This document shows, one piece after another, positions 1 through 9,727 of a stretch of DNA of 9,727 nucleotides (position 1 is the stretch's first letter; the number at the start of each line of letters is the position of its first letter). The DNA comes from a virus (taxonomy: Duplodnaviria > Heunggongvirae > Uroviricota > Caudoviricetes). The notes under the pieces are model-generated. The model was not told the origin of the DNA. It saw only the letters and a program-made list of their open reading frames with translations, and made no database searches. The DNA lies in IMG/VR virus record IMGVR_UViG_2681813145_000002. One strand, written 5' to 3'. The position numbers were made by a program, and so were the translations under genes.

Positions 1-62
1 ATGCTGTGCCCCGGTATCCGTCACCCATTTCTCACCATCCCATTTATCATATGGCGTTAACG
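1..62. repeat. Left copy of a direct repeat shared with 8764..8825 (59/60 identical over the first 60 nt, then diverging); truncated by the window edge
   Basis: Direct comparison of the sequence at the two locations; both copies lie in chaperone genes and encode PLTPYDKWDGEKWVTDTGAQH. Confidence 0.85.
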
Positions 63-384
63 GGGCGATAGTGGTTGTATTTTCAGGGTAATCACCCGGA
101 GCTGTGATTTCTTTCGATTCTCCTGTTTCGGTGCTATAGATGATTTCACCGCGATGGTCTGGCACATATTCCCATGAGTTAAAATCTGCAGAACGGCAGA
201 TTGCATAACCAGCTTTATGTGTAACTGGTGCATCTAAACAAGAACATGCCGGGATACCGACGCCAACCGCAAGATATTCAGTTGATGTGGAAATATATTC
301 CCGCGTTTCACCATCATAATTATAAACGGTTATGTCTCCCGCTTTTATGGCAATGAGTTCGTTATTTAATACGGCTTTATTCAT
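1..384 (-). CDS. Tail fibre assembly protein (chaperone), partial; start codon at 384..382, C-terminus beyond the left window edge
   Basis: My own translation of the minus strand from the ATG at 384..382 is open to position 1 (about 128 codons: MNKAVLNNELIAIKAGDITVYNYDGETREY...NSWEYVPDHRGEIIYSTETGE...PLTPYDKWDGEKWVTDTGAQH). The DHRG..Y motif and the PLTPYDKWDGEKW segment are typical of Tfa/gpG-family chaperones. The start overlaps the H stop (TGATG). Positions 1..60 are 59/60 identical to 8764..8823 inside the second chaperone gene. Confidence 0.8.
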   Translation of the reverse strand, partial: MNKAVLNNELIAIKAGDITVYNYDGETREYISTSTEYLAVGVGIPACSCLDAPVTHKAGYAICRSADFNSWEYVPDHRGEIIYSTETGESKEITAPGDYPENTTTIAPLTPYDKWDGEKWVTDTGAQH

Positions 385-1670
385 CAGGCAGCCCTCACGA
401 TATAATTAAAGGCAATGTTACGAGGTCGGTTTTCGTTTGCAGTTGGAACAACTCTGGAAGCATCGAATGTTACTCGCTTTGCATAACCACCTTTAATTGA
501 ATCAGATGAAGCATCTCCGATGACGCTGGTTGTAAAAACGCCAGAATCAGAAGGGTAGGTATTAAACCTGACATCCACTAATGCACCAATTATATTTCGA
601 ATGGCATCTCCCTGTGACGAAAGCAAGCTACGGTTAGTATCTATTCCTCTTCCGTCATCCCAGCCACGAATGAACTCACCACGTAAATCAGGCAATTTAT
701 TTGTCGGGTAAGCCTTTGCCAGTTCCGGGTATTCTTCAGCAGAAAAAGCCGCACCGTTGCATTTCAGCCAGCCTGTTGGCGGAGTGGCGGAAGGCCACGG
801 AACAGGTACACCAACGGGTAACGCTGAGCCTTCTCCCAAACCAAGGTATGCGAGAAGACCAGCCACATCCTTTCCACTCAAATGAGTCAGCGTCTCATCC
901 AGTGGTTGCTTACCTGACAGCGCATTGTTAATGGTGGTGCTGAATTTCGGGTCATTGTTGATAGCTGCTGCAATTTCCTTCAGCGTGTCCAGCGTGGCTG
1001 GCGCACCGTCAATCAGAGCGGTAATAGCAGCCTGTACAAACGCAGTGGTCGCAATCCGCGTGGTGTTATTTCCTGCGGCAGGCGTCGGCGCTTTTGGTTC
1101 TCCGGTAAATGTCGGATTATGTTTCTGCGCATACTGGGTATGAGGATCCTGTGCGGCAATGTGGTTTCTCATCTGTTCATCCACATACAGCCTTAATTCC
1201 AGGACTTCATCATCCACGTATTTACGGGTCGCCAGTACCACCGACGGGTCGATTTTCAGCGTAATAGCTTCGGTATTCGTGACAACCAGAATCATGCGGA
1301 TAGTCTGGGTACGACCGCTGCCTTCCTGCAACTGCGGTTTGTACGTTTCCGGGCAGTTCGCCACCGCAATGAGTACGCCTTCATCATCATAAAGCCCAAT
1401 CTCACGGATCCAGAATCCGCCCTCGTTCTCAGGGATGATTTGCTCCGCAATAATCTGGCTCTGGTTGTTCGGGTCAACACTCAGAAGATTCAGCGGCGCG
1501 ATGCGTTTCTGGTTAATCAGTTTTGTCTGTGCCGGGTCTGGTGTCGGCAAGACACCATTCGCATCACCAACGGCCATTTGCGTCAGATTCAGCTTACTGC
1601 CGAGCATCGTCGCGTTAGCCAGCCGTGCTGCGCCCTGATTAGTCAGAATGGCGTAGTATTTCACTGTCAT
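384..1670 (-). CDS. H: Tail fibre protein (P2 gpH-like), conserved N-terminal and collar region plus variable C-terminal receptor-binding part
   Basis: 428-aa ORF from the six-frame track. The N-terminus (MTVKYYAILTNQGAARLA...MAVGD...GGFWIREIGLYDDEGVLIAVAN) follows the conserved pattern of P2 H / Mu S type fibres. The collar motif DPKFSTTINNALSGKQPLDETLT and the C-terminal ...PRNIAFNYIVRAA ending are typical of this family. It sits after gene I with an ATGA overlap. Confidence 0.9.
   Translation of the reverse strand: MTVKYYAILTNQGAARLANATMLGSKLNLTQMAVGDANGVLPTPDPAQTKLINQKRIAPLNLLSVDPNNQSQIIAEQIIPENEGGFWIREIGLYDDEGVLIAVANCPETYKPQLQEGSGRTQTIRMILVVTNTEAITLKIDPSVVLATRKYVDDEVLELRLYVDEQMRNHIAAQDPHTQYAQKHNPTFTGEPKAPTPAAGNNTTRIATTAFVQAAITALIDGAPATLDTLKEIAAAINNDPKFSTTINNALSGKQPLDETLTHLSGKDVAGLLAYLGLGEGSALPVGVPVPWPSATPPTGWLKCNGAAFSAEEYPELAKAYPTNKLPDLRGEFIRGWDDGRGIDTNRSLLSSQGDAIRNIIGALVDVRFNTYPSDSGVFTTSVIGDASSDSIKGGYAKRVTFDASRVVPTANENRPRNIAFNYIVRAA
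831..856. other. Candidate Gin/Hin-family crossover site (site 1), TTCTCCCAAACC-AA-GGTATGCGAGAA, inside H at the constant/variable boundary
   Basis: 26-bp imperfect palindrome (12-bp half-sites around a central AA; half-sites match 10/12). The half-site pattern TTnTCnnAAACC resembles recalled gix/hix sites. On the coding strand it encodes LAYLGLGE, exactly where the two H-like proteins in the window stop being similar. Confidence 0.55.
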
Positions 1671-2278
1671 GCGTTTACTCTCAGGTTATCAATTAAATGA
1701 ATGGCCGAGGCCGGGAAATAATCCCCTCCGACAATAATGGCCTCCGGGGTGTAGGGATAAACCGTCAGGGCGTCGCCGTGATAGCATCCCGCACCGGCAA
1801 AAATGTTGCCGGTTGTACTTAAACTGATAGCCAGTCCCGTCAGATGGCGGCTTGCAGGTTTTGCATCAGCAACGAGACGCTCCAGCTCCTGATACATTTC
1901 CTCGGTAATACCCTGCTCAAGCACGCCAACAACGATGCGGAACGTCCCCGGCTCCTCGTTGAGCTGCCACCACTCCCTCACCTCAATCAGATAGCCGAGC
2001 GGCTCCACCACACGGCGAATCGCACCAATAGTGCCCTTATGGCAGTGAATGAAATACGCATCGTGGATAACAGCGCGTTTTGTCGCTTCCGGCCACTTAT
2101 CATCCCAGCGGTCAACCGAAAATGACCATGCCAGCCACGGCAGCAGATTTGCCGGACAGGTATCCGGGTTCCACAGCTCACGAATACTGACCGGCGTTCT
2201 TTCAATTTCCGCACAGGCTTTTGCGGCGGCGACCTCAAGCGGTGATGAGCCGGTCGGCAGCAGTCGCGAATCACTCAT
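1667..2278 (-). CDS. I: Baseplate / tail fibre-associated protein (P2 gpI-like)
   Basis: 203-aa ORF, N-terminus MSDSRLLPTGSSPLEVAAAKACAEIE. Positioned between J and H as in P2; 8-nt overlap with the J stop and ATGA overlap with the H start. Confidence 0.88.
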   Translation of the reverse strand: MSDSRLLPTGSSPLEVAAAKACAEIERTPVSIRELWNPDTCPANLLPWLAWSFSVDRWDDKWPEATKRAVIHDAYFIHCHKGTIGAIRRVVEPLGYLIEVREWWQLNEEPGTFRIVVGVLEQGITEEMYQELERLVADAKPASRHLTGLAISLSTTGNIFAGAGCYHGDALTVYPYTPEAIIVGGDYFPASAIHLIDNLRVNA

Positions 2279-3179
2279 CCGAGCCTCCGGTCACGACGCT
2301 GTATTCGGTGCAGAAAGACGCCTGCGTACTGTTGAGCACAATGTCGGCCAGTGGTGCGGCCAGCTCGACACGCTGCACGCCTTCCACATGCAAAGCGGCA
2401 TAAATGGCAGACAGACGGATGTCACGCCCCAGCCGGTGCTGTGCCGTGATGTACGCTTCCAGTTTTTTCACGGCGGCAGCGCGAATGGGTTCGCTTTCGG
2501 GACCTGGGTAAAGGTAAAGCGTGGCGTTTATCTGGTATTCAACGATGGCGGCAGACTGCACGGTCACGCGGTCGGCCACCGGCCTGACGTCCTCGCCATT
2601 AAGGGCGTTACGCACCACAGCCAGCAGGTCTTCGGATGCGACGCCGTTATTTTCACGTGACAGCACAGAGATGGTGACGCAGGCCGGAGACGGACTGGTG
2701 ACAGAAATATCCGCGACACGCCCGTCAGCACTGCGACCATGATACTGATAGGCACCCACCGACCCGGCGACGCTTAAACCTTCAAACGCCTGCTGAATAC
2801 GCAGACGATAATCGGTGTCAGATTCCATCACTGCCGGTGTCGGCGGGAGGGTCGAATCATCTGCCGGGGTGATAGTCAGGCGCGTGGTGTTGTAATTGGC
2901 ACCAATCACATCAAGGTCATTACCGGCGGCACAGGCCAGCATCACCGCCCGTGCGGCCTCATTCACACGCTGACGCCAGATAAGCTCACGATAAGCATTT
3001 TCCTCCAGAAGTTTGACGAGAGGCTCAGATTCCAGCGTCAGGGTACGGGCGACCGCCTCCTGCTGGTCTTCCGGGTAAAGGGAAATCAGTGTCGCCTTGC
3101 GTTCGGCGAGAATGGTTTCAAAGTCCAGCTCCTCGACCACATCCGGTGCGGGTAGCTGGTTCAGGTCGATAATCGGCAT
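2271..3179 (-). CDS. J: Baseplate assembly (wedge) protein (P2 gpJ-like)
   Basis: 302-aa ORF in the conserved W-J-I position; size and sequence consistent with the gpJ / T4 gp6-like baseplate family (recognised by recall). Confidence 0.9.
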   Translation of the reverse strand: MPIIDLNQLPAPDVVEELDFETILAERKATLISLYPEDQQEAVARTLTLESEPLVKLLEENAYRELIWRQRVNEAARAVMLACAAGNDLDVIGANYNTTRLTITPADDSTLPPTPAVMESDTDYRLRIQQAFEGLSVAGSVGAYQYHGRSADGRVADISVTSPSPACVTISVLSRENNGVASEDLLAVVRNALNGEDVRPVADRVTVQSAAIVEYQINATLYLYPGPESEPIRAAAVKKLEAYITAQHRLGRDIRLSAIYAALHVEGVQRVELAAPLADIVLNSTQASFCTEYSVVTGGSDE

Positions 3180-3183
3180 GGTT

Positions 3184-3531
3184 TCAACTCACAGGAATGG
3201 TTAACGAAAGTGGCTGGCCGGTGTCGTTGTGCTGACCGGTTAACGTGACCGTCATTCGCCCGTCAAAACTGCGCTCAGTGGTGACGGATGACAGGGTGAC
3301 GCGGGGTTCCCATTTCAGCACTGCCATGTAACAGGCGACCTTAATCTGCAACTCAAGCGCCGGAGTCTGCGGCTGGTCAATCATTGACGCCAGCAACGAG
3401 CCGTAATCACGACGCATCACCCGTGAGCCGACAGGTGTGCGCAGGATATCGCCGATACTCTGGCTGATATGCTCAAGGTCAGTGACAGTCAGGCCATCAC
3501 TGCGATTCATTCCGAGATAACGCGCTGTCAT
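3184..3531 (-). CDS. W: Baseplate protein (P2 gpW-like, gp25-like)
   Basis: 115-aa ORF; ATGA overlap with the V stop; conserved V-W-J order. Confidence 0.9.
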   Translation of the reverse strand: MTARYLGMNRSDGLTVTDLEHISQSIGDILRTPVGSRVMRRDYGSLLASMIDQPQTPALELQIKVACYMAVLKWEPRVTLSSVTTERSFDGRMTVTLTGQHNDTGQPLSLTIPVS

Positions 3532-4163
3532 AGAGGACTCCCGGTTGTGCCGCCGCTGTCGCCTGGGTGTTTGTGGGTATGCAGTACCTTCCCGTTTGAT
3601 GAGAGTTCACCGCCGGTGTGTTCAATGTTGCCGCGCATCGTCCCGCCCTTCTGCACTTCCAGCGTGCCGGTAATCAGCTTGTTAGTGCAGACCACCTCCG
3701 GTGTGTCCAGGGTGACGCGGGTTGATGCTTTCACCACGACCACCGGCACCATGGCAGTAACAGAATCAGAAGCCGTCACGCTGGCCGTTTTAATTCCGCT
3801 TACCGTGAGTGCACTGGTTTCGGGTTCATACTCAATCACCGCCCCGTCAGGGAAACGGATATGCATGGCATCCGCCGACGCAGACGGCGCGGGGTTATCG
3901 CCGGAATAAATCCCCGGCAGAACGAACGCCGTGTCGAGTTCACCGCCCACGGCCAGAATCAGCACCTGTTCCCCCACGGAAGGTGCCCACCATGTGCGCG
4001 AACGCCCGGCACGATGGGTCAGCCACTGCAGCCAGTCGGTGCACATGCTGCCGGTCTGCACACGGCAGCGACCGGCGTTAAGGTCGGTTTCGACGACAAG
4101 GCCGGTACGAATCATGTTGCGCAGTGCGCGCGCGAGTTCCTGAATATTTGCAAGAGTGTTCAT
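3528..4163 (-). CDS. V: Baseplate spike / hub protein (P2 gpV-like)
   Basis: 211-aa ORF beginning MNTLANIQELARALRNMIRTGL, which matches my recollection of P2 gpV in sequence and length. Confidence 0.9.
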   Translation of the reverse strand: MNTLANIQELARALRNMIRTGLVVETDLNAGRCRVQTGSMCTDWLQWLTHRAGRSRTWWAPSVGEQVLILAVGGELDTAFVLPGIYSGDNPAPSASADAMHIRFPDGAVIEYEPETSALTVSGIKTASVTASDSVTAMVPVVVVKASTRVTLDTPEVVCTNKLITGTLEVQKGGTMRGNIEHTGGELSSNGKVLHTHKHPGDSGGTTGSPL

Positions 4164-4175
4164 AACGGGAAGGAT

Positions 4176-4197
4176 GCCGCCGGGTCATACCGGCGGC
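4176..4197. repeat. GC-rich inverted repeat (8-bp stem GCCGCCGG/CCGGCGGC, 6-nt loop) in the 66-bp S-V intergenic gap
   Basis: Seen directly: gccgccgg-gtcata-ccggcggc. It lies 13-34 nt upstream of the V start codon on the coding strand and is not followed by a U-run. Confidence 0.5.
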
Positions 4198-4229
4198 AAT
4201 GTGACGATGAGGTGTCGGAAATGGCACAA

Positions 4230-4682
4230 CTAACGGTCGAGATGAGCCAGGATAATCTCTTCAATCATCTGCACATCCTCACCGGTAAAGCCGAGCAGAG
4301 GACGCGCCGGATAATCAATTTTCTTACCGTCTTTCCGGGTTTCTTCCGACAGACCGAACTGATGCACACTGGCGATTTTCGGTGACTTCCCGCCGTAAAA
4401 CTCCATTGATGACTGTTCCGGGCTGGCGCGGATATGCAAAAAACGACTGGTGATAAGTTTCGCAAACATTTTTCGCTTAACACGACCGGTCTTTTTTCTG
4501 GAGCTCTGCTGCTGGCGTGGCGCATAGGGTGTGCCATCCGGGGCTTTCTGTGCCATCACCCGACGCTGCTGACTCTGCCGCAGGCGTTTCGCCAGTTCGG
4601 CACTCAGTCGCCGACGCCCTGACGGTGACAGCGATTCAATAAGTCCGGTCAGCCGGTCTTCAAAACGCTTAAACTCATTCAT
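4230..4682 (-). CDS. S: Tail completion / virion morphogenesis protein (P2 gpS-like)
   Basis: 150-aa ORF; size and position (after R, before V) as in P2; 8-nt overlap with R. Confidence 0.88.
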   Translation of the reverse strand: MNEFKRFEDRLTGLIESLSPSGRRRLSAELAKRLRQSQQRRVMAQKAPDGTPYAPRQQQSSRKKTGRVKRKMFAKLITSRFLHIRASPEQSSMEFYGGKSPKIASVHQFGLSEETRKDGKKIDYPARPLLGFTGEDVQMIEEIILAHLDR

Positions 4683-5142
4683 CCCACTTGCTCACCAGTT
4701 CGCCATTGATATACAGCTCCATCGGGCGGGTGACCGGCTCCGGCGGCGGGGGTTCCGGGATATTCTTCACATGCAGTGCGCCATCCACCTCACTGACCAG
4801 CGTGCGCTCGGTCAGCATCAGGCTGATGCTGATATCAAAGCTGCTGTCATTGTTGATGTCCGCATAAAACGTGAAGCCCTTTTTCTGGCCTGCGTCGGTG
4901 GTCATGATGTCGGGCTGATTTTCCCGCAGCCACGCCAGCACCGGCACGATGAGCAGGTCAAAATCACCGGTAAAGTCGGTCACAATGACATTGAGCGTGT
5001 AACGCTTTTCGAATGACAGCGACGTCGCCAGCGTGGAGGCAATACTCCCGTTATCCACGAATATCCGAAGCATCTCGGGGCTTGTTTTCAGCACCGTGAC
5101 GGCATCAGTCAGCGCCCTGCGCAGGCTGTCGGGTTTGAGCAT
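4675..5142 (-). CDS. R: Tail completion protein (P2 gpR-like)
   Basis: 155-aa ORF; size and position between the lysis genes and S match P2 R. Confidence 0.88.
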   Translation of the reverse strand: MLKPDSLRRALTDAVTVLKTSPEMLRIFVDNGSIASTLATSLSFEKRYTLNVIVTDFTGDFDLLIVPVLAWLRENQPDIMTTDAGQKKGFTFYADINNDSSFDISISLMLTERTLVSEVDGALHVKNIPEPPPPEPVTRPMELYINGELVSKWDE

Positions 5143-5395
5143 CGTTTTCGTCCTGACAGTGTTTAATCATTTTTATCTGGCTGGCACAGCGTGCCAGCGC
5201 GTTCTCAAGCTGCCGGATATCGGCACTTAAATCACCGTTCGTCTCCGGGTCACTGCCCGGCATCGGGCAAAGACTCACTTTCGGGCAGGCGTTGGCGACA
5301 ATCACTGGCGTCGGTGCAGACCGGGCGCTGGTGCAACCGGCGCACAGCATCAGGCAGGCCAGCGCCGTACCAGCGGCGAAAATCTTCGTTTTCAT
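5105..5395 (-). CDS. lysC: Outer-membrane spanin component (Rz1-like lipoprotein, P2 LysC-like); overlapped arrangement
   Basis: The six-frame ORF 5105..5512 is trimmed to the internal ATG at 5395..5393, which has a GAGG Shine-Dalgarno 8 nt upstream. The 96-aa product begins MKTKIFAAGTALACLMLCAGC (signal-peptide-like with Cys at 18 and 21; the lipobox is non-canonical) and is Pro-rich. It starts inside lysB in another frame, runs past the lysB stop and overlaps the R start. Confidence 0.7.
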   Translation of the reverse strand: MKTKIFAAGTALACLMLCAGCTSARSAPTPVIVANACPKVSLCPMPGSDPETNGDLSADIRQLENALARCASQIKMIKHCQDENDAQTRQPAQGAD

Positions 5396-5675
5396 TGAGT
5401 AACCTCGTGATGGTTTTCTCGCGCTGTGCTTCACGCTTCGCGGCGTTCTCCAGTTCCTGACGCAGTGCCACCTGCGCCAGCTCGTTTTTGTCTGCTCTGG
5501 TGAGGGCAACATGAAGCTGATTTTTCAGCATGGTGATGGTCGTCTGCTGCCCGCTGGCGACGTTGTTCACCCTGTCCAGCGAGGCGCGCAGGCTGGCGTT
5601 TTCATGCTTCGCCAGAAACAGCCCCGCCACCGCCAGCGATAACAACACGACCAGCACAATCATCAGCTTTGACAT
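5250..5675 (-). CDS. lysB: Inner-membrane spanin component (Rz-like, P2 LysB-like)
   Basis: 141-aa ORF with an N-terminal hydrophobic segment (MSKLMIVLVVLLSLAVAGLFLA) followed by a charged, coiled-coil-like region; lies downstream of lysA and contains the lysC start. Confidence 0.85.
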   Translation of the reverse strand: MSKLMIVLVVLLSLAVAGLFLAKHENASLRASLDRVNNVASGQQTTITMLKNQLHVALTRADKNELAQVALRQELENAAKREAQREKTITRLLNENEDFRRWYGAGLPDAVRRLHQRPVCTDASDCRQRLPESESLPDAGQ

Positions 5676-6088
5676 AATTCCCGCCCCTCAAGACGCTGAC
5701 GACAGGCTTTACGTATCAGCCGGAAAAACAGCGACGCCACAAGATAAATCAGCGCGGTAAAAATCCACCCGGCAGCGACCAGCGAGATAAACGTCACCAC
5801 CATCACCACCAGAGCTGCCGCCCGTCTGCGCCACGGCACCGGCTGTAAAAACAGCGACGTGACAATCTTCACGGCCAGCGATTCCGGCGGAAGCTCCCGC
5901 CCGTAGCGCTCAAGTACATACTCAGTGGCATACACGCCGACACCACCGGCAACCACACAGATAGCCGTCGCCAGAATCGCCCAGGCAGCGACAAAATTGA
6001 CGCCCCCGCTCTGCGGGTAAATCAGGGACAGTGCCAGCATCAGCGCCAGCGACACGTTCAGCATCAGTGAAAGGGATAATTTCTTCAT
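5663..6088 (-). CDS. lysA: Lysis-timing membrane protein (P2 LysA-like)
   Basis: 141-aa ORF with several hydrophobic helices; position between the endolysin K and lysB as in P2; GGAG Shine-Dalgarno upstream. Confidence 0.82.
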   Translation of the reverse strand: MKKLSLSLMLNVSLALMLALSLIYPQSGGVNFVAAWAILATAICVVAGGVGVYATEYVLERYGRELPPESLAVKIVTSLFLQPVPWRRRAAALVVMVVTFISLVAAGWIFTALIYLVASLFFRLIRKACRQRLEGRELCQS

Positions 6089-6102
6089 GGTGTTTACTCC
6101 GT

Positions 6103-6600
6103 TTAAGCCAGTACGCCGCCAGCGGTACGCCAGACGGTGACCAGTTTTTCCAGTGAATGCTCACGCTGACCGTAACCGGCACCCGGCAGGGACGCCCAGA
6201 TATTGCGACAGCGTGAAATGGCGCGCTCAATGCGTCCCGCCCGGATGTCATCCAGTGCACCGCGTTCGCGGATCAACTGAATGGCGAGTCTGTCCTGTGA
6301 CAACGGACTGAAATCCGGCAGGGCAAGCTGTTTGCGGTAATGCGGCCAGAACAGGTAAAGCTGCTGATAGCGACCGGAGGCCGTGGACTTTTCACCGCGA
6401 CGGTTAAACACCTTCGCCGGTCGGCCATGCGCGAACGGGTGGTCACTGTAGTCGGTGAAAATTTCCGGCTTCCCGTCCAGTCCGGTGACTATCACGTCAT
6501 AGCCCCGGTTTTTCGTCAGCGGATGGTTTGCCGTCCCTTCGGACACGGCCAGCATGTCGAGAAAGGCCGCGATATTCTGATGCGTGTTAATTACCGGCAT
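6103..6600 (-). CDS. K: Endolysin, phage lysozyme (P2 gpK-like)
   Basis: 165-aa ORF beginning MPVINTHQNIAAFLDMLAVSEGT, which matches my recollection of P2 K; start overlaps the holin stop by 1 nt (TAATG). Confidence 0.9.
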   Translation of the reverse strand: MPVINTHQNIAAFLDMLAVSEGTANHPLTKNRGYDVIVTGLDGKPEIFTDYSDHPFAHGRPAKVFNRRGEKSTASGRYQQLYLFWPHYRKQLALPDFSPLSQDRLAIQLIRERGALDDIRAGRIERAISRCRNIWASLPGAGYGQREHSLEKLVTVWRTAGGVLA

Positions 6601-6881
6601 TACGGTTTCCCCCTGCCCTTAAAGCGGCGCTGAATGGCAATCTCAATCACCTGATAACCGGCGATACCCAGCATGGAGCCGATGCCGCACACCGCAGGCA
6701 GTGACAGGTCAGGAAACTGCACCAGAACAACACCGGCAACCATCGAGACAAAACCACCGAGCAACATGCGCCCGATAAACAGACGCGGGGTGATGGGTTC
6801 ACCACCGGCAAGCACCTTGCCGACAACAATCAGAACCCCAATCATGAAAAGCGACAGGACGCTTTTTTCTTCTGCTGTCAT
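6600..6881 (-). CDS. Y: Holin (P2 gpY-like)
   Basis: 93-aa ORF with multiple transmembrane-like hydrophobic segments and a charged C-terminus (RRFKGRGKP); GGGAG Shine-Dalgarno upstream; immediately precedes the endolysin. Confidence 0.88.
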   Translation of the reverse strand: MTAEEKSVLSLFMIGVLIVVGKVLAGGEPITPRLFIGRMLLGGFVSMVAGVVLVQFPDLSLPAVCGIGSMLGIAGYQVIEIAIQRRFKGRGKP

Positions 6882-6884
6882 GCG

Positions 6885-7088
6885 TTACTCCCACAGATTG
6901 ACAGTTTCAGCCACGGGCGCGGTCTGAACGTCGGGCAGTTCGACGGCGGTGCCGTGCGGCAGCACCGCGCCCAGTTCAGCCAGTCCCGGATTTGCGGCGA
7001 GCACGGTCTCAACCACGCCCTCAGTGCGCCCGTAATACCGGACACAAATGGCGTCGAGCGTGTCGCCCTGTAGCGCAAAGGTCTTCAT
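6885..7088 (-). CDS. X: Tail protein X (small LysM-like protein, P2 gpX-like)
   Basis: The six-frame ORF 6885..7157 is trimmed to the ATG at 7088..7086 (MKTFALQGDTLDAICVRYYGRTEGVVETVLAANPGL...), giving 67 aa; the start overlaps the L stop by 1 nt. Confidence 0.85.
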   Translation of the reverse strand: MKTFALQGDTLDAICVRYYGRTEGVVETVLAANPGLAELGAVLPHGTAVELPDVQTAPVAETVNLWE

Positions 7089-7597
7089 CAGATTTGACTC
7101 ACGATGCAGCGCGGCTTGTCCTGGATACGCGCCACCGCCCAGCGCATATCCCGCCACAGTTCATCGATGGTGCTGTCAATGCTGTCAGCCTTCTTGTCGC
7201 CTTTCGCACTGGCATCCACGCCGCGGTAACGCTCATAAAGCGACGCGGTCGCCATCGCACACACGGCGCGCTCGTAGTAAAAAACCTTGATGCTTTCACC
7301 GTCGATGTCGTCCGCCGGGACGTCCGCCAGACGCGTAAAACCGGCGGCAATTTTCTGTTCGCGGTACTCGTACAGCTCCGCATTCGTCTCCGCCATGCCT
7401 GACTTGATGGCCTCACGCAGACGGGCGGGGGCGACGGTCTGCTCAAGGCGCATACGTTCCCGGACGCGCTTCGGGTCGATATCGGGAAAAAAGAACGTGT
7501 TTTTAATCACCGGCTCGTCGCCTGCCGGTTGCGGGATGACCACCGTACCCTCACCGGACACGGGAGCCTCCTTTCGCGGAATAATCAGCGTCATCAT
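7088..7597 (-). CDS. L: Head completion / stabilisation protein (P2 gpL-like)
   Basis: The six-frame ORF 7088..7657 is trimmed to the ATG at 7597..7595 (MMTLIIPRKEAPVSGEG...), giving 169 aa with a GAGG Shine-Dalgarno 9 nt upstream; sequence and length fit P2 L as I recall it. Confidence 0.87.
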   Translation of the reverse strand: MMTLIIPRKEAPVSGEGTVVIPQPAGDEPVIKNTFFFPDIDPKRVRERMRLEQTVAPARLREAIKSGMAETNAELYEYREQKIAAGFTRLADVPADDIDGESIKVFYYERAVCAMATASLYERYRGVDASAKGDKKADSIDSTIDELWRDMRWAVARIQDKPRCIVSQI

Positions 7598-7696
7598 GAC
7601 TACCTCTGAAAAGTCGGGCGGTGGACGCCGGTGCAGTGTCAGGTGATTCACCCTCACTGACCGGCGTGCCGCCCTGGCGCGGGGCGCATTCGGTTG

Positions 7697-7792
7697 TTAA
7701 CTGGCTTTCTTTTTCGGGCGTCCACGTTTTGCCGGTGTCACGCTCCGGGTCTTACGCGGGGTACGGGTGGCCGCTTTTGGCTGCGGCTCCAT
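7697..7792 (-). CDS. Hypothetical short basic ORF (31 aa, [31 protein letters not shown]) with an AT-hook-like RGRP core; possibly a C-terminal remnant of a truncated gene
   Basis: My own translation; it is below the 60-aa cut-off of the ORF track. It starts immediately outside crossover site 3 and ends 100 nt before L. No convincing Shine-Dalgarno was checked, so coding status is uncertain. Confidence 0.2.
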
Positions 7793-7799
7793 CTCTGCA

Positions 7800-7825
7800 T
7801 TTTCATAAACGTTGGTTTGGGAGAA
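7800..7825. other. Candidate Gin/Hin-family crossover site (site 3), TTTTCATAAACG-TT-GGTTTGGGAGAA, inverted relative to sites 1 and 2
   Basis: The right half-site GGTTTGGGAGAA is the exact reverse complement of the left half-site of sites 1 and 2 (TTCTCCCAAACC). The central dinucleotide is TT versus AA in the others. The left half is degenerate (8/12). Confidence 0.5.
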
Positions 7826-8131
7826 GCGGCAAAACGGAATGTGGGAACAGGGGAAAATCAGATACCTAGTATGTCAGAATGGACATCTGGGACAGGATGG
7901 AATAGAGACCCGTCGGGGAGAATAATACAGCGGGGATTTGCTATGACATCAAGCCAAACCAACATTTTATTCCCGATACCATTTCCGTATGACGATTTCG
8001 AAGTTATCGTTTGTGCAGCAGATACAGGAGCAAATAAAGGGGCCGTAAATGTGTTGCGAAAATCGAGGCAGGGGTTTTCTGTTTCACAGGTTGGAAGTAT
8101 GCCAGTCGCATACAGATGGATAGCGGGGTGA
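7826..8131 (+). other. Promoterless alternative tail fibre variable (receptor-binding tip) cassette, about 102 codons, in frame with crossover site 3
   Basis: The plus-strand frame through site 3 encodes GLGE at the site, the same as H at site 1, and stays open to the stop at 8129..8131 (...[42 protein letters not shown]...VAYRWIAG). There is no upstream constant region and no good Shine-Dalgarno for the internal ATG at 7871. It is followed by its own chaperone gene. Confidence 0.6.
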
Positions 8132-8574
8132 TTGAAATGTATAAATTTGATCCAAAGAATGCATTATTCTATCCTGCTGCGTCAATTTCCGATTATAAAT
8201 TGAGCGAAGATGAAATCGCCACATTCACTGATATTAGCGAGGAGGATGCAACCGAGTTTTTAGGATTCCCGCCGACTGGAAAAATCAGAGGGTCGGACGG
8301 TTATGGCAATCCTGCATGGGTTGAAATACCTCCACCATCACATGAGGAACTTATTGAACAGGCCGAATCAGAGAGGCAATTATTGATTAACCATGCCAAC
8401 GAATACATGAACAGTAAACAATGGCCTGGTAAAGCGGCTATTGGTCGTCTGAATGGTGAGGAACTGGCGCAATATAATTTGTGGCTGGATTATCTGAACG
8501 CACTGGAACTGGTTGATACCTCCAGTGCGCCAGATATTGAATGGCCTACGCCTCCGGCAGTTCAGGCCAGATGA
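8116..8574 (+). CDS. Tail fibre assembly protein (chaperone) paired with the silent variable cassette; true start may be the ATG at 8137 (MYKFDPKN...)
   Basis: 152-aa ORF with a Tfa-family C-terminus (...[26 protein letters not shown]), similar in pattern to lambda Tfa and Mu U C-termini. Its 3' end overlaps the 3' end of the minus-strand chaperone gene by 29 nt, as with the convergent chaperone genes of the Mu G segment. Confidence 0.8.
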
Positions 8575-9139
8575 CATCCGGCGCGGTGCTGGTATCTGTT
8601 GCCGTCACCGCGTCAATGTAATCCAGCACAGCGTTAAGTCGGGTGGTTTCTGCCTGCGTCAGTTTACGTCCGGCCTGCAATTTCAGTTGAATCAGACTGA
8701 TGGAAGCCATTGCAGTATCAATCAGCGACTGGCGCTGTGCTTCTGCTGCATCTACTGCGGCGCTATGCTGTGCCCCGGTATCCGTCACCCATTTCTCACC
8801 ATCCCATTTATCGTATGGCGTTAACGGTGAAAGCGTGACATAACCGTCTTTGATGGCACCGATATAATCCACTGTAACAGCTGCGCCATTTTCGATTGAG
8901 TAAACAGTCTCATTGCGGTGGTCTTCTTCATGGCTCCATCCCTTACCTGTAAATACTGCCACTCTTCCCGGAATGTTTTCGCCAGGATCAATACCAGTGG
9001 AACAGGCGGGCATACTTACGCCAGTATTAATATATTCATCAGACCAGCCCGTATACTCAGATGTTTCAGCATCATAATAAAAACAACGCATATCGCCCGG
9101 CACTGTAGCCAGCCCATTTTCATCAAAAACAGGTTTCAT
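8546..9139 (-). CDS. Tail fibre assembly protein (chaperone, P2 gpG-like) paired with the right-hand fibre gene
   Basis: 197-aa ORF (MKPVFDENGLA...PLTPYDKWDGEKWVTDTGAQH...[26 protein letters not shown]). The Tfa-family C-terminal motif is present; the start overlaps the stop of the upstream fibre gene by 1 nt (TAATG). Confidence 0.85.
   Translation of the reverse strand: MKPVFDENGLATVPGDMRCFYYDAETSEYTGWSDEYINTGVSMPACSTGIDPGENIPGRVAVFTGKGWSHEEDHRNETVYSIENGAAVTVDYIGAIKDGYVTLSPLTPYDKWDGEKWVTDTGAQHSAAVDAAEAQRQSLIDTAMASISLIQLKLQAGRKLTQAETTRLNAVLDYIDAVTATDTSTAPDVIWPELPEA
8764..8825. repeat. Right copy of the direct repeat shared with 1..62
   Basis: Direct comparison; single mismatch (atcatatgg versus atcgtatgg). 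Confidence 0.85.
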
Positions 9140-9727
9140 TATTTAGCCCTCACCAGAAAGTTAAATGCAATATTTCGCGGTCTGACGGCAATAAAATTCA
9201 CACCATCCCCTACAGCAGAACTGGTGAACTGAAATCTTGAAAAGCCAGGCTGATTACCTGTAATTCCATCATGACTATTAATCGCATGGCCGGACCCTTC
9301 TGGATAATTACCGCCAAATTGCGATAAAGATGTTGCTGCCTGCCAGCTTAATAATTCGCGACCACCATCTGCACCTCGCCCGTCATCCCAGATACGAATG
9401 AAATCACCGCGGGCTTCAGGTAATACCAGCGAAGGAAACACTTTTGCCAGCACAGGGTAATCAGAGGCAGAAAATTTCGCCCCGTTGAACTTCAAAAACA
9501 CCATACTGGACCAGCTGTCGATTACAGTATTTGGCATTGCAGCGGACGGCCAGAAGAACGGAACGCCAATAGCTGGAGCACCTTCTCCCAAACCAAGGTA
9601 TGCAAGAAGACCGGCAACATCCTTCCCACTCAAATTGGTAAGCGTATTGTCCAGCGGTTGTTTACCTGCCAGCGCATTAAGCATTGTCGTGGCAAAGTTC
9701 GGATCATTCCCCAGTGCCGCCGCCAGT
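9139..9727 (-). CDS. Tail fibre protein, 3' portion only (collar plus variable C-terminal domain); 5' end beyond the right window edge
   Basis: The minus-strand frame is open from the window edge (LAAALGNDPNFATTMLNALAGKQPLDNTLTNLSGKDVAGLLAYLGLGEG...) to the stop at 9141..9139. The collar is about 80% similar to that of H at 384..1670 and close to my recollection of the P2 H collar; the part after GLGEG is a different variable domain, ending ...PRNIAFNFLVRAK. Confidence 0.85.
   Translation of the reverse strand, partial: LAAALGNDPNFATTMLNALAGKQPLDNTLTNLSGKDVAGLLAYLGLGEGAPAIGVPFFWPSAAMPNTVIDSWSSMVFLKFNGAKFSASDYPVLAKVFPSLVLPEARGDFIRIWDDGRGADGGRELLSWQAATSLSQFGGNYPEGSGHAINSHDGITGNQPGFSRFQFTSSAVGDGVNFIAVRPRNIAFNFLVRAK
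9583..9608. other. Candidate Gin/Hin-family crossover site (site 2), TTCTCCCAAACC-AA-GGTATGCAAGAA
   Basis: Differs from site 1 at one position; same orientation as site 1 and inverted relative to site 3. It lies at the constant/variable boundary of the right-hand fibre gene and encodes LAYLGLGE. Confidence 0.55.

Follow-up and report, generated by a model that had tools for sequence, protein, structure and literature searches.

Why does a prophage carry a tail-fibre tip that no fibre precedes? The question is raised by a stretch of 9,727 nucleotides from a Caudoviricetes virus (IMG/VR record IMGVR_UViG_2681813145_000002), hereafter called the window, which corresponds to positions 1-9727 of draft scaffold KQ087901.1 in assembly GCA_001030505.1. 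On its plus strand the window carries a short tip cassette, tip2, and nothing fibre-like is found upstream of the crossover site (site B) from which tip2 is read. This bears out the silence attributed to tip2 in a preliminary description of this DNA, made from the letters without database searches. Very probably, the part of the window from 7792 to 9727 represents a tail-fibre switch of the serine-invertase kind, caught in one of its states, in a P2-like (Peduovirus) Escherichia coli prophage, its placement next to genes M and L being a scaffold join. This part contains the plus-strand tip2, its chaperone, a minus-strand chaperone, and a minus-strand tip (tip3) carried on about 40 codons of a second fibre gene, laid out as follows:

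7800-7826: crossover site B, inverted relative to sites A and C, with reverse complement CTTCTCCCAAACCAACGTTTATGAAAA and the central dinucleotide TT at 7812-7813.
7814-8131, plus strand: tip2, the silent (OFF) tail-fibre tip cassette, made of GLGE, 101 residues and a stop.
8137-8574, plus strand: tip2 assembly chaperone of 145 residues, its N-terminal alpha/beta domain (residues 1-63 or so) variable and its helical C-terminal domain conserved.
8546-9139, minus strand: chaperone of the ON tip, 197 residues, with Caudo_TAP_N and Caudo_TAP.
9139-9581, minus strand: tip3, the tip now joined to the constant part (ON), related to the Collar-domain tip1 and carrying WPSA and PRNIAFNFLVRAK.
9582-9608: crossover site C, CTTCTCCCAAACCAAGGTATGCAAGAA, the inverted partner of B, 1755 nucleotides (nt) away.
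9609-9727, minus strand: constant part of a second H gene (Hc'), its last 40 or so codons as read from the translation, followed by a run of N after 9727.

There are three copies of the crossover site in the window, sharing the core TTCTCCCAAACCAA, a pattern whose chance expectation is 0.00. Sites B and C are 94% complementary over 18 nt and fall within the codons for LGLGE. Since the crossover lies inside these L-G-L-G-E codons, any cassette can be joined in frame. In the mechanism that we propose, the inverted sites at 7800-7826 and 9582-9608 bracket a 1.8-kb segment containing two opposed tip and chaperone cassettes. The constant part of H is outside this segment (9609 onward, minus strand), joined to the Collar-type tip at 9139-9581, so that this tip is the one made. 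Tip2 (7814-8131) faces the other way and has neither promoter, start codon nor shaft, which leaves it silent. When an invertase flips the segment, recombination at the central dinucleotide in the L-G-L-G-E codons should fuse the constant part to tip2 in frame, and the chaperone at 8137-8574 should come next as the following gene. By analogy with related fibres, the tip2 foot would then form trimers, aided by its chaperone, and its variable distal loops would bind a surface sugar, and this second tip would give the virions a second host range.

Complete genomes provide both states of the switch. That of strain 22AR0750 matches window positions 7809-9599 in the same orientation, at 99.55% identity, and matches the flanks 7792-7826 and 9582-9727 in the opposite orientation, at 100% identity, with 9582-9727 corresponding to its H gene. 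A same-orientation interior between inverted flanks is the pattern of a segment flipped between fixed flanks, the two orientations being compared here between strains and not between cells of one culture. When the 22AR0750 gene is translated, tip2 is the extreme C-terminus of a 455-residue H protein, fused in frame. The same is found in EC12, where annotated gene coordinates put tip2 at the end of a 455-residue fibre gene, and in LF3-1, where by the same kind of coordinates the matching cassette ends the 202-residue fibre gene of a Mu/e14-like prophage. Tip2 is silent beside a recombinase gene in E7 and in the second prophage of 22AR0750, and a recombinase gene adjoins the segment in E7, 22AR0750, EC12, T22 P2 and MET_P1. 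The arrangement seen in the window from 7792 to 9727 is contiguous in the complete genomes of E7 (96.3%) and 22AR0750 (99.6%).

Mu (G/Gin), P1 (C/Cin) and e14 (P/Pin) carry switches of the same design. For P2-like prophages, experiments in enteropathogenic E. coli (EPEC) have demonstrated that the fibres switch by inversion, two or three inverted repeats giving alternative C-termini (Goldberg et al., 2014; PMC4272514). As in these P2-like E. coli prophages (EPEC E2348/69), the segment excludes the constant 5' part of the fibre gene, the inverted crossover sites are in the coding sequence, and there are two opposed tip and chaperone cassettes. Both orientations are again found in nature, and relatives have a serine invertase gene next to the segment. 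Nothing of substance separates the two systems, as the invertase-less window with an abutting gene M is best explained by a join at an N in the record.

What, then, would the flip put at the end of the fibre? Past the shared GLGE, tip2 consists of 101 codons and a stop and ends VAYRWIAG (7826-8131), versus 148 and 147 residues in the two minus-strand tips, so it is indeed the shorter cassette, as first described. Its start has to be corrected: the frame runs from 7814, and the coding sequence begins there, right after the crossover dinucleotide TT (7812-7813). The motifs WPSA and PRNIAFN(Y/F)(I/L)VRA, which had been noticed in the minus-strand tips, are present in both of these, and the tip alignment finds neither in tip2. 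Tip1, the tip of a complete 428-residue H protein encoded elsewhere in the window, is 43% identical to tip3 (E 3e-30); it scores above the cut-off for the Collar domain (PF07484), with tip3 below it (16.3 bits vs 24). In the Pfam profile search, tip2 gives no Collar match and instead matches Gp53-like_C (PF21882) at 35.8 bits (cut-off 24.9, E 1.2e-8), over profile positions 1-81 of 84. BLASTP of tip2 against tip3 is not significant (E 7.2), and an NCBIfam search gave no matches for any of the six fibre and chaperone proteins. Judged by these comparisons of sequence, tip2 is in a different domain family from tip1 and tip3, and the preliminary description was right to separate them.

The first 20 or so residues of tip2 form a conserved adaptor, followed by a Gp53-like_C or discoidin-like lectin “foot” of about 80 residues. 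Among homologues the adaptor is nearly invariant, the core P..G.I.Q and FP are conserved, and the remainder varies freely. In an alignment-based AlphaFold model the tip is all-beta, and the predicted local distance difference test (pLDDT) over residues 21-105 is mostly 87-93, lower around 71-80. The fold of this predicted monomer is the jellyroll or discoidin-like one of gp53 from phage AP22 (4MTM), the founder of Gp53-like_C; a sequence search of the PDB finds the same structure weakly (E 0.13). Structural neighbours of the model include the C-domains of the LKA1 and phi297 tailspikes, discoidin, Helix pomatia agglutinin and the SLL-2 lectin, and those given by Foldseek are concordant. The model places tip2 in a known class of receptor-binding domains, for which trimerisation and receptor binding are predicted, and the concern raised at the outset that it might resemble no such domain falls away.

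This predicted foot fold is shared with the fibre feet of R-type pyocins (PDB 6CL6, 6CU2, 6CXB) and with gp53 of the Acinetobacter phage AP22, which also have a separate chaperone gene directly downstream. The pyocin foot has the same set of structural neighbours, and its lectin jellyroll has been proposed to bind the sugars of lipopolysaccharide (LPS) via variable distal loops (Salazar et al., PMC6363177). Pyocin fibres needed co-expressed chaperones for solubility (PMC6363177). The pyocin and AP22 feet differ from tip2 in that their folds are solved and its fold is predicted, and their sequence identity to it is 18-21%. As the distal loops are unrelated, the receptor cannot be transferred from one to the other. 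By analogy, the tip2 receptor is probably a surface sugar, either the LPS core or O-antigen. The tip of fibre Gp15 from the Jilinvirus HeidiAbel (Bas97) is 40.6% identical to tip2 over 98% of the query, with much of this identity within the conserved adaptor, and the gene for its Tfa, Gp16, follows. HeidiAbel is from another phage group, no inversion switch has been described for it, and it depends on O16 O-antigen (PMC11990801). Its likeness hints that tips of the tip2 class can read LPS glycans. Given a predicted discoidin-like lectin foot on one side and a Collar-type tip on the other, it is reasonable to expect different receptors, as was first suggested.

The chaperone gene lies directly downstream of tip2 (tip2 stop at 8129-8131, chaperone ATG at 8137), and the same pairing is found in all relatives examined. 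Its start is more likely this ATG than the in-frame one at 8116, which would add seven codons, since RefSeq WP_032252818.1 is 145 residues long and a GGGGTG lies 7 nt upstream. The protein matches Caudo_TAP (PF02413) at 108 bits (cut-off 22.1, E 4.9e-31) and phrog_188 (E 1.6e-53), and has more than 1500 homologues, the best of them 99% identical. Its model (pLDDT 93) has a beta/alpha domain at residues 1-63 and helices at 69-124; a sequence search of the PDB matched nothing meaningful. The 3' ends of this gene and of the opposed chaperone gene (8546-9139) overlap. In its longer form (8116-8574), the tip2 chaperone aligns with the 8546-9139 chaperone over the C-terminal 87 residues alone, at 33% identity, and gives no alignment with the third chaperone in the window, of which the N-terminal 128 residues are present; the N-termini of the 8546-9139 and third chaperones are 45% identical. 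Its N-terminal half is thus unrelated to the other two, as had been reported from the letters. Identity to the chaperones that serve other gp53-like tips is 71-90% in the C-domain and 32-38% in the N-domain, and the divergence of the N-domain parallels that of the tips' binding domains (29-33% identity). Tfa chaperones normally combine a variable fibre-binding N-domain with a conserved trimerising C-domain (PMC9608196), so that given this modular design an unrelated N-terminal half is expected and not unusual. The tail-fibre assembly protein of phage Mu (TfaMu, PDB 5YVQ) and Caudo_TAP are built in the same way, with a variable N-domain thought to bind the fibre and a conserved helical C-domain thought to trimerise.

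The preliminary description also held that tip2 might be the more novel specificity module, and this is not sustained. Its family is a curated Pfam entry with a solved structure, and the module is common to P2-like and Mu/e14-like prophages. An NCBI protein of 119 residues, found in E. coli and Salmonella, is 100% identical across the whole of tip2. The exact protein is therefore in NCBI already, and the tip, the chaperone and the switch are catalogued and not new. Of 5426 complete E. coli genomes, 20 carry tip2 and its chaperone over the full length at 98.9% identity or more. In P0004, a tip with 97% identity is attached to another fibre N-terminus. The occurrence of tip2 in both P2-like and Mu/e14-like prophages means that the module moves between phage types. 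In LF3-1 (locus L011, 7323-12749), the partner tip is cut by IS26, which is followed by tet(B)/tetR/tetC, and the stretch shown has no annotated recombinase gene next to the segment; tip2 may be fixed ON there. In 13P477T the cassette lies on the chromosome and on three small separate records (37, 15 and 22 kb; H101, H102 and H125), which may be extrachromosomal or unplaced P2-like phage contigs.

As a discovery the locus is of small value, being an ordinary module in an ordinary switch. It does illustrate neatly how a single fibre shaft can carry in turn two receptor-binding folds of unrelated structure, Collar-type and lectin-foot type, and how one tip and chaperone module moves between P2-like and Mu/e14-like prophages at a conserved crossover and adaptor sequence. 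If the tip2 receptor were identified, host-range prediction for E. coli prophages and engineered tailocins would gain one entry.

Why does this switch abut gene M? On the minus strand, positions 1-7790 are the late region of a P2-like prophage, as seen from the translations of its open reading frames and from profile and nucleotide matches. The gene order is the end of M, then L, X, holin, lysozyme, lysA/B/C, R, S, V, W, J, I, H and the start of a chaperone. The features that bear on the join are these:

1-384, minus strand: tip1 chaperone, first 128 codons, cut at the scaffold start.
384-1670, minus strand: tail-fibre gene H, complete, 428 residues, with a Phage_tail_fib N-terminus, site A and the Collar-type tip1 (384-829).
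830-856: crossover site A, inside the H gene.
7697-7790, minus strand: fragment of gene M (terminase endonuclease subunit), its final 30 codons and stop, broken off at 7790, from translation and the annotation of matches.
7791: N in KQ087901.1 and A in the window, the sole mismatch between the two.

Homology to P2-like L and M stops at about 7790-7794, and from 7791 the sequence is homologous to the flank on the invertase side of the switch. The N at 7791 is thus probably a contig join, and its position at the breakpoint between gene M and the switch indicates that the window is two contigs put together by the scaffolder. An exact search for the junction 37-mer (7780-7816) gave no matches in viral_contigs and none in genome_contigs, and megablast of 7400-8000 against the 5426 complete E. 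coli genomes found no place that spans the junction. Bases 1-63 repeat 8765-8827 with 98% identity, corresponding to the conserved C-terminal part of two chaperone genes. Through this 63-nt repeat, the 22AR0750 counterpart of window 7791-8827 (99.7%) continues straight into that of 1-464 (98.7%), giving the usual order of invertase, silent tip2, its chaperone, the tip1 chaperone, tip1, H ... L, M. This continuity shows the window to be the usual locus in permuted form. Wherever a contig ends in the scaffold, a crossover site or the shared chaperone repeat lies there or close by.

No serine invertase gene is present within the window. Past 9727 come 2667 N and then a contig with a fourth crossover site, a Resolvase/HTH_7 invertase gene that this site accompanies, and tail genes FI to D. 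The fourth site (TTTTCTTAAACGTTGGTTTGGGAGAAG; locus L008, 6690-6745) ends the contig that bears the invertase gene. The source assembly has at least two P2-like prophages, the second being on scaffold KQ087897.1. The invertase-less placement of the switch beside gene M most likely stems from the scaffolding of short reads in a multi-prophage genome and does not reflect biology. It also gives cause for caution, as invertible multi-copy prophage segments break short-read assemblies, and one N can yield an odd-looking gene order.

The prophage on KQ087897.1 shares 7.8 kb with the window at about 98.6% identity, rising to full identity at window 22-3026 (chaperone, H, I and part of J), and its scaffold likewise breaks off within the chaperone gene. 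The identical stretch could reflect either recent recombination between the prophages or repeat collapse in the assembly.

Several points weigh against this interpretation of the locus as a scaffolded serine-invertase switch with a lectin-foot tip. The invertase is absent from the window and, in this genome, seen only across the 2.7-kb gap, which makes its linkage to this switch putative. In principle, the single N might stand for an ambiguous base instead of a gap. The tip and chaperone repeat is probably in two prophages of the source genome, and the draft leaves the H partner of tip2 ambiguous. As for the tip itself, its sequence match to the solved gp53 structure is weak, its fold assignment rests on a predicted monomer, and its receptor and chaperone dependence are argued by analogy.

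The ambiguity of the H partner leads to the alternative that survives best, one that we consider possible, at somewhat below even chances. Tip2 would be the OFF partner of the complete 428-residue H (384-1670), truly located just beyond position 1 beside the invertase, and 7792-8827 would be a collapsed two-copy repeat attached to the tip3 and Hc' of a different prophage. The 22AR0750 prophage in which 7791-8827 joins 1-464 has its invertase at the tip2 end, as this account expects, and 13P477T has a similarly joined match to window 1-8827. The cassette is carried by two P2-like prophages of 22AR0750, and the presence of at least two such prophages in the source assembly, with KQ087897.1 identical to window 22-3026, points the same way. 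On the other side, 7792-9727 is one unbroken contig, and its contiguous arrangement, natural in E7 and 22AR0750, need not be chimeric. This collapsed repeat is compatible with the switch as we read it, since both copies of the cassette may exist.

It is very unlikely that the join between gene M and site B is real, the prophage being a rearranged or tandem hybrid in which the cassettes lie upstream of the late operon. In that case recombination between sites A and B would flip the 6.9-kb block from L to H and bring the 428-residue H onto tip2. As inverted repeats of 27 nt, sites A and B are 81% complementary and lie 6.9 kb apart, and the LGLGE codons that they share suggest that such an inversion would join the reading frames correctly. 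The breakpoint, however, falls 10 nt beyond the 26-bp site and so was not produced by site-specific recombination, and it coincides with the N in the record. Moreover, gene M is reduced to its final 30 codons there, and the junction is absent from the 5426 complete E. coli genomes and from both contig collections. That the junction at 7791 is genuine and the tip is changed by inversion of the L-to-H block between A and B is, in this specific form, a shade less credible still; if true, it would be a layout undescribed for this class of tail-fibre switch. Two other origins of the window were considered and rejected. An invertase acting at a pseudo-site does not account for the junction of gene M and site B, as the breakpoint is 10 nt outside the 26-bp site. 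Repeats D1, D2, D3, D6 and D10, spaced about 8.76 kb apart, might suggest that the window is circular or recently duplicated in tandem, yet the overlaps are different alleles (75-98% identical) and there is an N at the join.

Finally, it is hardly conceivable that the tip2 cassette is a decaying, unusable remnant, a fate that its silence here and an upstream reading frame antisense to gene M might suggest, since the tip2 frame, chaperone and crossover site are all intact, E7 differs at two nucleotides in tip2 and one in the chaperone with no amino-acid change, the fusion is in frame in 22AR0750, EC12 and LF3-1, and the tip2 model is confidently folded; the stops and frameshifts that the preliminary description had thought might appear in related strains are not seen, and the cassette is conserved in them. 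A 145-residue open reading frame at 7694-8131 (TTG start), which extends tip2 upstream, was rejected as a real gene, as the join created its first 40 codons, which run antisense to gene M. For gene L, the list of open reading frames gives 189 residues from a GTG at 7657 (7088-7657) and the source records give 169 (7088-7597, MMTLII...), the shorter form being likelier.
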